DNA of 9,461 bases from a virus (Duplodnaviria > Heunggongvirae > Uroviricota > Caudoviricetes), in the IMG/VR virus record IMGVR_UViG_2737471850_000005, one strand, 5' to 3'. The notes beneath the pieces were generated by a model that saw only the letters and a list, made by a program, of their open reading frames with translations, did not search any database and had not been told where the DNA came from. The position numbers and the translations under genes were made by a program. Of this stretch, positions 1 through 601 are shown in pieces (position 1 is the stretch's first letter; each line of letters opens with the position of its first letter).

Positions 1-321
1 TCAGATTGCAGGATTATCGTCATCCACTGCTCGGTTAATGAGATGCGTCAGAATGCCCTTCACATCCACCTCATCCAGAACCTCTCCTTCAAGTACTTCA
101 CCATCTATCGTTATCAGCGCATCGCCTCTACGTTTGGCAAAGTGACAACCTCCTGAATACGAAATCAGGTAGGTACTGTCTGGCGATGGCTTCATGCCCT
201 TTTCTATCACAGCAAATCCTTGCGATGTCTCAATCACCAGGCTGTTAGTGGTGACTCCGCATATAACATTCACATTAAGCTTACTTTCGATGTAATCCCT
301 TGCTGGACTTGGGAACCCCAT
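1..321 (-). CDS. UmuD'-like S24-family domain protein; starts at the GFPSPA motif, catalytic Ser/Lys apparently not conserved
   Basis: Minus-strand ORF ending at TGA (1-3 on + strand). The ATG at 321 has GGAGGG about 8 nt upstream and gives MGFPSPARDY..., matching the GFPSPAADY motif that begins RecA-processed UmuD'. By-eye alignment blocks: GDALITIDGE vs UmuD GDIVIAAVDGE, and VKGILTHLI vs VFGVVIHVV. An alternative in-frame ATG at 336 (track ORF 1..336) has no SD. Confidence 0.55.
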   Translation of the reverse strand: MGFPSPARDYIESKLNVNVICGVTTNSLVIETSQGFAVIEKGMKPSPDSTYLISYSGGCHFAKRRGDALITIDGEVLEGEVLDEVDVKGILTHLINRAVDDDNPAI

Positions 322-322
322 A

Positions 323-562
323 TCAAAGCCCTCCATTCGGGTTGTACATGAACCAGGTCTTGTTCTCCCCGTGATCGGGAGTGATGTCTTTGAAGCAGGT
401 GGTGTATCTGGCTATCCATTGATTAGCCTCTTCCATGCTGAGCTCCCAGTTAACCTTTAGTAGTTCCTTAACAAAATCAGCAGTTTTCACAATCCTGCGG
501 CCTGACCTTTCATGCACAATAGAGGCCCTGAAGGCGATCTCAATATCTGAACGACGCGGCAT
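323..562 (-). CDS. hypothetical 79-aa protein, first gene of a LexA-box-controlled operon
   Basis: ORF-track ORF with ATG at 562 and GAGGTGA about 8 nt upstream. A LexA box lies about 20 nt upstream of the start. Its stop (325-323) falls within TGATATG, 2 nt before the downstream ATG at 321. No family recognised. Confidence 0.5.
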   Translation of the reverse strand: MPRRSDIEIAFRASIVHERSGRRIVKTADFVKELLKVNWELSMEEANQWIARYTTCFKDITPDHGENKTWFMYNPNGGL

Positions 563-581
563 GTTGTCACCTCAAAATGCA

Positions 582-601
582 TACTGTATGCATATACAGT
601 A
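582..601. promoter_or_regulatory. LexA (SOS) box TACTGTATGCATATACAGTA
   Basis: Palindromic CTGT-N8-ACAG with TA flanks, differing at only 2 central positions from the consensus TACTG(TA)5CAGTA. It lies in the divergent intergenic region between the minus-strand 79-aa ORF and gtrA. Confidence 0.75.

Follow-up and report, generated by a model that had tools for sequence, protein, structure and literature searches.

A LexA-box cassette at a prophage end pairs a short UmuD'-like protein, made without a propeptide, with a predicted winged-helix protein

SOS mutagenesis by DNA polymerase V (Pol V) is normally gated by the slow, RecA-dependent cleavage of UmuD. A mobile element that supplies a ready-made analogue of UmuD' could bypass or jam this gate, which would shift mutation rates, and hence the evolution of resistance, in lysogens and plasmid carriers. 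Whether such an element is at hand is the question raised by a locus in the viral record IMGVR_UViG_2737471850_000005 (Caudoviricetes), of which a stretch of 9,461 nucleotides (nt), called the window here, was analysed. The source is a prophage, hence a temperate phage, of E. coli, and its SOS cassette takes up the last 625 bases of the window on the minus strand. An earlier note on this DNA had read the cassette as a LexA-controlled operon encoding a mimic of UmuD' that is "born cleaved", together with an unknown partner of 79 amino acids (aa). Our analysis leads us to favour, with modest confidence, the reading that positions 1–625 hold a LexA-repressed two-gene operon whose short second product serves as a non-catalytic UmuD'-like subunit on the host UmuC and/or RecA. 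The parts of the cassette are as follows.

620–625, minus strand: probable −35 hexamer TTGATC, conserved in the comparison of relatives
596–601, minus strand: probable −10 hexamer TACTGT, coinciding with the left arm of the LexA box; suggested by its fixed spacing to the conserved TTGATC
582–601 (read on the minus strand, from 601 to 582): LexA (SOS) box TACTGTATATGCATACAGTA, differing from the E. coli LexA consensus TACTG(TA)5CAGTA at two central positions
568–573, minus strand: Shine-Dalgarno sequence GAGGTG of the 79-aa gene, 5 nt before ATG 562, as read from the sequence
323–562, minus strand: gene of the 79-aa predicted winged-helix protein (PHROG 3893, no Pfam family), with its ATG 19 nt past the box and TGA as stop
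330–334, minus strand: Shine-Dalgarno sequence GGAGG of the 106-aa gene, within the 3' end of the 79-aa gene and 8 nt before ATG 321
1–321, minus strand: gene of the 106-aa short HumD-like (UmuD'-like) protein, with its stop at 3–1, ending exactly at window base 1

The box at 582–601 is of the CTGT-N8-ACAG type, close to consensus, and overlaps the probable −10. No second site in the window matches with three mismatches or fewer, and 200 dinucleotide-preserving shuffles yielded no match, so that the near-consensus SOS box proposed in the earlier note stands, as does its position about 20 nt ahead of the first open reading frame (ORF). A simple consensus promoter scan made no call, and the promoter was located instead by comparison of relatives. 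TTGATC (or TTGAT) is found 17–18 nt before TACTGT in most of those that were aligned, although the surrounding upstream sequence is otherwise unrelated, and this conserved spacing places the promoter of the window with its −35 at 625–620 and its −10 at 601–596. LexA bound at 582–601 would cover the −10 and occlude RNA polymerase. For further comparison, 97 loci with a homologue of the 79-aa gene were surveyed, comprising the window itself, E. coli genomes, cultured phages and IMG/VR contigs (labelled L and a number below); about 92 of them carry a LexA box with at most five mismatches 11–43 nt 5' of this gene. From the box and the −35 TTGATC, both kept across otherwise unrelated upstream sequences, we infer that the two genes form an operon under LexA control, in agreement with what had been claimed.

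The 106-aa ORF starts with ATG 321, 1 nt past the stop of the 79-aa gene (and not 2 nt, as had been counted), which suggests translational coupling. Its N-terminus is MGFPSPARDYIESK (MGFPSPARDY...). An in-frame ATG at 336, five codons upstream, is not the start because it is absent in 97%-identical relatives and because in 93 loci the homologous gene opens with M/V-GFPSPA, G or P being replaced by R or A in a few of them. Thus the start at M-GFPSPARDY, preceded by its GGAGG and kept in these 93 loci, was well chosen, and the coordinates and reading frames given earlier were right.

That the second protein is indeed a relative of UmuD' is concluded from profile comparisons. When a profile of 35 family members was compared with PDB sequences, UmuD and UmuD' were the only significant matches, UmuD being the best, and hhalign matched the short family, over all 106 columns, to a joint alignment of HumD-type proteins and UmuD' (98.8% probability, E 1e-16). 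In addition, residues 6–110 of the 111-aa ORF matched positions 1–105 of 106 in PHROG 3469, "UmuD-like protein" (E 6.1e-41). The UmuD subfamily model PRK10276 recognized the N-terminal arm only (22.1 bits, cutoff 110), and the C-terminal domain proved S24 beta-barrel-like when its fold was tested. The protein has kept the arm MGFPSPAxDY, an acidic tail DDxP(V/A)I as well as the first helix and the last strand of the fold. These results support the earlier assignment, namely that the 106-aa product has the S24/UmuD' fold and begins at the residue at which UmuD' starts. It belongs to a short subfamily of 71 distinct sequences of 104–109 aa, in which many positions stay invariant even at about 40% identity, all in all strongly acidic (median isoelectric point, pI, 4.4; net charge −8). 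The ratio of nonsynonymous to synonymous substitution rates (dN/dS) is 0.08–0.12 for both genes of the cassette, indicating that both are under purifying selection.

A catalytic Ser-Lys dyad like that of UmuD (S60, K97) is not found in this protein, although the two positions were lost in different ways from those assumed. The segment with the nucleophilic Ser of UmuD (ASGDSMIDGGIS) is shortened by 9–11 residues, and in its place the predicted strands 27–32 and 35–40 form a tight hairpin (AlphaFold2 model; predicted local distance difference test, pLDDT, 70). The proposed replacement of SGDSM by TSQGFA therefore has to be given up, but it remains true that the short family has no invariant Ser: position 27 is S in 49, T in 17, C in 4 and M in 1 of the 71 members, and T32 occurs in 67 of them. 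The supposed replacement of the Lys (EGE for VKK) was a misalignment, since profile-profile alignment, with high confidence in this segment, sets H60-F-A-K63-R-R against T-V-K97-K-L of UmuD and K63 thus fills the position. Within the short family, however, Lys is found here in 51, Arg in 19 and Phe in one of the 71 sequences, a poor fit to an essential general base. A working Ser-Lys protease is unlikely; an unusual Thr/Ser-Lys arrangement would have no substrate in cis, and catalysis is at odds with the Arg substitutions. The longer HumD-type relatives show S, T, A or E at the Ser site and K, R or L at the Lys site, suggesting that proteolysis is dispensable across the whole group of proteins born in the cleaved form.

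A propeptide with a Cys/Ala-Gly cleavage site is absent as well. M-G stands at the position of UmuD G25, as it does in 93 of 93 homologous genes. Conservation is highest in the N-terminal arm that follows: G2, F3, P4, P6 and D9 are each retained by 95% or more of the 71 members, S5, A7 and Y10 by slightly fewer, suggesting that the arm functions after the point of would-be cleavage. The UmuD residues which contact RecA during cleavage (Y52, F94, D91 and E93; PMC9926225) are not conserved in the short family. Of the mimic that neither needs nor performs processing, the M-G start and the improbable protease thus remain, while the replaced Lys does not.

The concept itself is not new. A UmuD' analogue that is born cleaved and SOS-controlled is an established idea, for which HumD of phage P1, with its LexA box and without a propeptide, is the characterised precedent. 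HumD is said, going by the title of a 1999 paper by McLenigan et al., to facilitate SOS mutagenesis. According to the P1 record, it "functionally complements E. coli UmuD'". HumD (also gp26 of phage N15; model NF051876) resembles the window protein in its lack of a propeptide, its MGFPSPA start and its occurrence in a temperate phage; P1 humD has an annotated LexA site about 20 nt upstream, and there is no umuC on the element. The tails are also alike, both being acidic and ending in P-V/A-I (DDDNPAI in the window, EFDDCPVI in P1). HumD proteins, however, have 125–129 aa (129 in P1) compared to 106 aa here, and P1 HumD keeps Ser and Lys, whereas the window protein is without the Ser loop and has a motif of its own, ALITxDGExxEG. 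Moreover, P1 humD has no 79-aa gene upstream, while the short form is almost always found behind one. With UmuD and UmuD' the protein shares a nearly identical arm (GFPSPAxDYxE), a Lys at the position of K97 and SOS control; it differs by lacking the 24-residue propeptide, the cleavage site, the nucleophilic Ser loop and a umuC partner gene, and from UmuD' also by its length (106 versus 115 aa) and an extra acidic C-terminal tail. The relationship has been noticed in earlier annotation, where the family is called "UmuD-like protein" and where the annotators of phage mEp390 noted the similarity of its 106-aa gene to HumD. What is new here is the uncharacterised short subfamily with its 71 sequences and the almost obligatory, misnamed gene upstream of it, which encodes a predicted winged helix.

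The product of this upstream gene matches PHROG 3893, a family of unknown function. Pfam and NCBIfam have no family for it (the protein and 61 family members gave scattered chance matches), a search of PDB sequences with the family profile returned nothing meaningful, and a fold search in BFVD found its own family alone (HK225 gp28). The AlphaFold model (pLDDT 88; predicted template modelling score, pTM, 0.76) shows the order helix-strand-helix-helix-hairpin, by which the 79-aa product is a predicted winged helix, H-(E)-H-H-E-E. The family has about 79 residues throughout and comprises 201 representative clusters at 50% identity and 581 at 90%. Among 1.8 billion representative proteins searched, no genuine fusion to an S24 domain was found in these 201 clusters; long entries are frameshift read-throughs that retain the internal M-GF(P/S)SPA start. 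The median pI is 6.7 and helix 3 has no conserved basic residue, so that DNA binding by this protein is not evident, but R3, R/K68 and N47 are invariant. Three possible relatives were tried and rejected, namely the N-terminal domain of LexA (residues 1–84; hhalign probability 0.1%, no PF01726 hit), DinI (no similarity to phage DinI, hhalign probability 0.1%) and P1 Lxr (no relation). The suggestion of a novel accessory factor is therefore right in that the protein belongs to a real, conserved and uncharacterised family, but its role as an accessory factor of the UmuD'-like protein would be conjecture. A small gene ahead of a UmuD homologue in a LexA-controlled operon is reportedly also present in impCAB (Lodwick et al. 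1990). The 79-aa protein differs from the ImpC/DinI type in being a predicted winged helix, and in many of the loci dinI is present separately, in divergent orientation.

In RefSeq and UniProt, "DNA polymerase V" is a frequent name of the 79-aa protein, and HumD proteins are entered as "translesion DNA polymerase". Both names, which appear to have spread from the gene neighbourhood, are wrong, since neither protein is a polymerase.

The pairing of the two genes is highly regular. A gene starting with M/V-GFPSPAxDY is found at −4 to +2 nt of the 79-aa stop in 93 of the 97 loci, the four exceptions being phage HK225 and three loci that either are cut by the end of the contig or have an unrelated gene downstream. 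The downstream gene is of the short type (104–108 aa) in 46 loci, to which one truncated copy of 84 aa can be added, and of the HumD type (125–129 aa) in another 46. The 79-aa gene can be 91% identical between loci whose downstream genes differ in type and are only about 25–30% identical, and DNA similarity of the window to those loci ends at the gene boundaries. The unit is thus modular. In each of the cultured phages mEp390, phiES15, Midgardsormr38 and AH07, it is flanked by the tail-fibre genes on one side and by attP/int on the other.

If the favoured reading is correct, LexA would sit on the box over the −10 in an undamaged cell and keep the operon repressed, and after DNA damage the cleavage of LexA, driven by activated RecA, would free the promoter, so that both proteins would be made from one mRNA. 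The 106-aa product would be a minimal HumD-class protein which is made without a propeptide, would need no RecA-mediated processing and would almost certainly be no protease. By analogy with P1 HumD, it could engage the host UmuC and/or the RecA filament as a ready-made UmuD'-like module, with the 79-aa product as a co-expressed partner, and translesion synthesis or damage tolerance would be tuned whenever the prophage or plasmid senses damage. LexA control and co-expression are here derived from the conserved anatomy of the locus, the action on UmuC or RecA from the homology to HumD and UmuD' and from the context. A bolder version, which we regard as rather unlikely, is that the two proteins constitute a new two-component SOS effector of lambdoid phages and IncX plasmids, in which the winged helix targets or regulates the mimic on UmuC or on the RecA filament. 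If true, the mobile element and not the cleavage of UmuD would decide whether mutagenesis of the Pol V type is on or off.

Several findings weigh against the favoured reading or its extension. Pfam gave no match for the 106-aa protein, not even to S24, and the NCBIfam equivalog model for HumD (NF051876) covers residues 1–23 only with 26.9 bits (cutoff 120), while a 127-aa HumD-type protein from E. coli (L003) reaches 164.8 bits. The AlphaFold2 model of the 106-aa protein is of moderate confidence only (pLDDT 70). About 20 residues of the UmuD' core are missing, and the protein has its own invariant acidic motif, A-L-I-T-x-D-G-E-x-x-E-G, which together suggest that it may bind something other than UmuC. 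As to the partner, P1 HumD works without any 79-aa gene, and a conserved 79-aa gene next to divergent downstream genes is not what one would expect if its product formed a tight and specific complex with the partner's core.

The main rival takes the same protein as a damper. The short protein would then be a decoy or dominant-negative form that limits Pol V mutagenesis or the co-protease activity of activated RecA, alongside the DinI encoded next to it in relatives, either by forming heterodimers with the host UmuD or UmuD' or by occupying UmuC or the groove of the RecA filament with its acidic surface. The strong acidity of all 71 members, the family-specific invariant motif D73-G74-E75..E78-G79 and the loss of part of the UmuD' core would fit this proposal, as would the divergent dinI gene that shares the intergenic LexA box in 34 of 80 IMG/VR loci (e.g. 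L046 3683–3922), and UmuD and DinI both engage the basic groove of RecA via acidic residues (PMC9926225). However, the short family does not conserve the RecA-contacting residues of UmuD, and P1 HumD, the closest characterised relative, is described as complementing UmuD' and facilitating SOS mutagenesis. We therefore hold the damper to be possible but doubtful; the data presented here do not separate it from an activator. A quite different suggestion follows from the outline of the two products, which resemble the halves of a cleaved LexA, i.e. a winged helix (about 80 residues) and, beginning at the Gly of the cleavage site, an S24 domain, from genes that appear translationally coupled. In such a two-piece regulator the winged helix would be the DNA-binding module and the S24-like protein the dimerisation module, and it would be uncleavable by activated RecA, e.g. 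for a late reset of the SOS response. Attractive as it is in outline, this reading failed every test that was run: the low hhalign probability for the LexA N-terminal domain, the neutral charge and the lack of a conserved basic residue in helix 3, the absence of a genuine fused form in the 201 clusters and the free exchange of the downstream partner all make it very unlikely.

Since the S24 fold is also the dimerisation fold of repressors and since a LexA-controlled cassette of small genes lies at the prophage end, far from the immunity region, an antirepressor module of the Tum/GfoA type was considered too: once the SOS response is induced, one of the proteins or both would inactivate the prophage repressor. 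The Gifsy antirepressors reportedly also lie at the prophage end, away from the immunity region. On the other hand, mEp390 and Midgardsormr38, two complete phages that carry the cassette, have cleavable repressors of the classical kind (helix-turn-helix plus S24, with QAG site, GDSM and Lys) and so do not require an antirepressor, and the cassette also occurs on conjugative IncX3 plasmids and in prophage remnants without an immunity region, which renders this role highly improbable. That the cassette is merely a functionless, decaying remnant of a umuDC or humD locus could be suspected from the shortened protein, its lost active site, its place at the edge of the prophage and its persistence in degraded prophages. 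Yet a dN/dS of about 0.1 for both genes, the constant length and the many invariant positions in 71 distinct sequences, and the conservation of the box, the promoter and the ribosome-binding sites are hard to reconcile with decay, and we give this explanation next to no credence.

The value of the result lies in the short subfamily and its conserved, misnamed partner, a predicted winged helix, within a widespread SOS-controlled unit, whereas the concept re-discovers the HumD principle. The earlier observation is sound, and its interpretation stands at the core. The cassette is common, being found in many Enterobacterales prophages and in more than 1,000 plasmid records, with a first gene misleadingly named "DNA polymerase V". 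With its two genes and a clear promoter and operator it is also a defined unit, suited to the assays that were used for P1 HumD.

On plasmids, the 79-aa protein matches 1,067 records, of which 951 are conjugative. All records of about 43–46 kb that were examined are IncX3 plasmids, and those examined carried blaNDM-5 or blaSHV-12. The IncX3 locus annotated as "umuD / delta-umuD" has the same layout as the window, with a 79-aa homologue (50% identity) followed by a gene starting with MGFPSPA, and a box reading TACTGTATATGCATACAGCT. It differs in carrying the long HumD-type form, which is truncated by IS26 in two plasmids examined. A further difference is seen in a blaNDM-5 IncX3 plasmid (L100 versus L101, 3900–4000), where ISKox3 sits inside the LexA box and has destroyed half of it; the left half-box is replaced, the sequence running ...agaccc directly into ATATGCATACAGCT. 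As judged from the sequence, this insertion should uncouple the plasmid operon from LexA. The same AGACCC-ATAT junction is present in three IMG/VR loci (L023, L025 and L093, upstream of 4001), and the palindromic LexA box may be a preferred target of the ISL3 family.

The divergent dinI is also found at L004 3409–3675 and L008 2662–2949, in a position which is occupied by gtrA in the window. A gene for an SOS response-associated peptidase (SRAP; YedK-like) lies convergent, just 3' of the HumD-type gene, at L003 3952–4620 and L099 4633–5301, and ORFs of 222–223 aa in further IMG/VR loci (e.g. L053 4633–5301) are probably SRAP genes, judged by size alone. SRAP and dinI make up a small DNA-damage island at the prophage end, and their neighbourhood points to damage tolerance and not to control of the lysis-lysogeny decision. 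Among the surveyed loci with downstream sequence, the pair is clearly broken in only two, HK225 (L008) and L049. In HK225 (L008 3001–3908) the 79-aa-type gene, which lies behind a LexA box, is extended to 99 aa with an altered C-terminus and is followed by a DNA invertase gene, with no UmuD'-like gene there.

The earlier note had left room for a umuC-like gene past the window start. In E. coli contigs encoding an identical 106-aa protein, some 760 bp in which no gene is called separate this gene from the host genes yodB, zinT, msrQ and msrP, which makes the cassette the outermost gene pair of the prophage, with no umuC following. The 80 viral contigs which bear the cassette usually end within 0.3–4 kb. 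No Y-family polymerase (IMS domain) was present among the larger downstream ORFs scanned in related loci; these encode integrases, SRAP peptidase, host lepA, an autotransporter and domains of unknown function, and include moron genes. In five E. coli loci (L002, L012, L014, L015 and L017) a prophage remnant lies between mtfA/tRNA-Asn and yodB, consisting of acyltransferase genes, insertion sequence (IS) elements and the intact two-gene cassette, its LexA box being down to five mismatches.

The remainder of the window holds an O-antigen modification (serotype conversion) block at 678–4430 on the plus strand, divergent from the SOS operon, and structural genes of the phage.

678–1040, plus strand: gtrA, O-antigen modification block
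1037–1969, plus strand: gtrB, O-antigen modification block
1944–3380, plus strand: GtrII-type glucosyltransferase gene, O-antigen modification block
3444–4430, plus strand: acyltransferase gene (Acyl_transf_3), O-antigen modification block
6914–4476, minus strand: tailspike gene with S74 chaperone domain
7820–7488, minus strand: head-tail connector gene
9210–8047, minus strand: HK97-type capsid gene

A megablast search of window positions 1–700 against phage genomes found no near-identical phage. The tailspike of 812 aa (Tail_spike_N plus S74 chaperone) follows the head and connector genes in the window (4476–7427), whereas the identical protein in other E. coli contigs (L011 and L013, 862–5846) comes after the genes for the Q antiterminator, holin and endolysin. 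These differing upstream genes place a mosaic junction just upstream of the tailspike.

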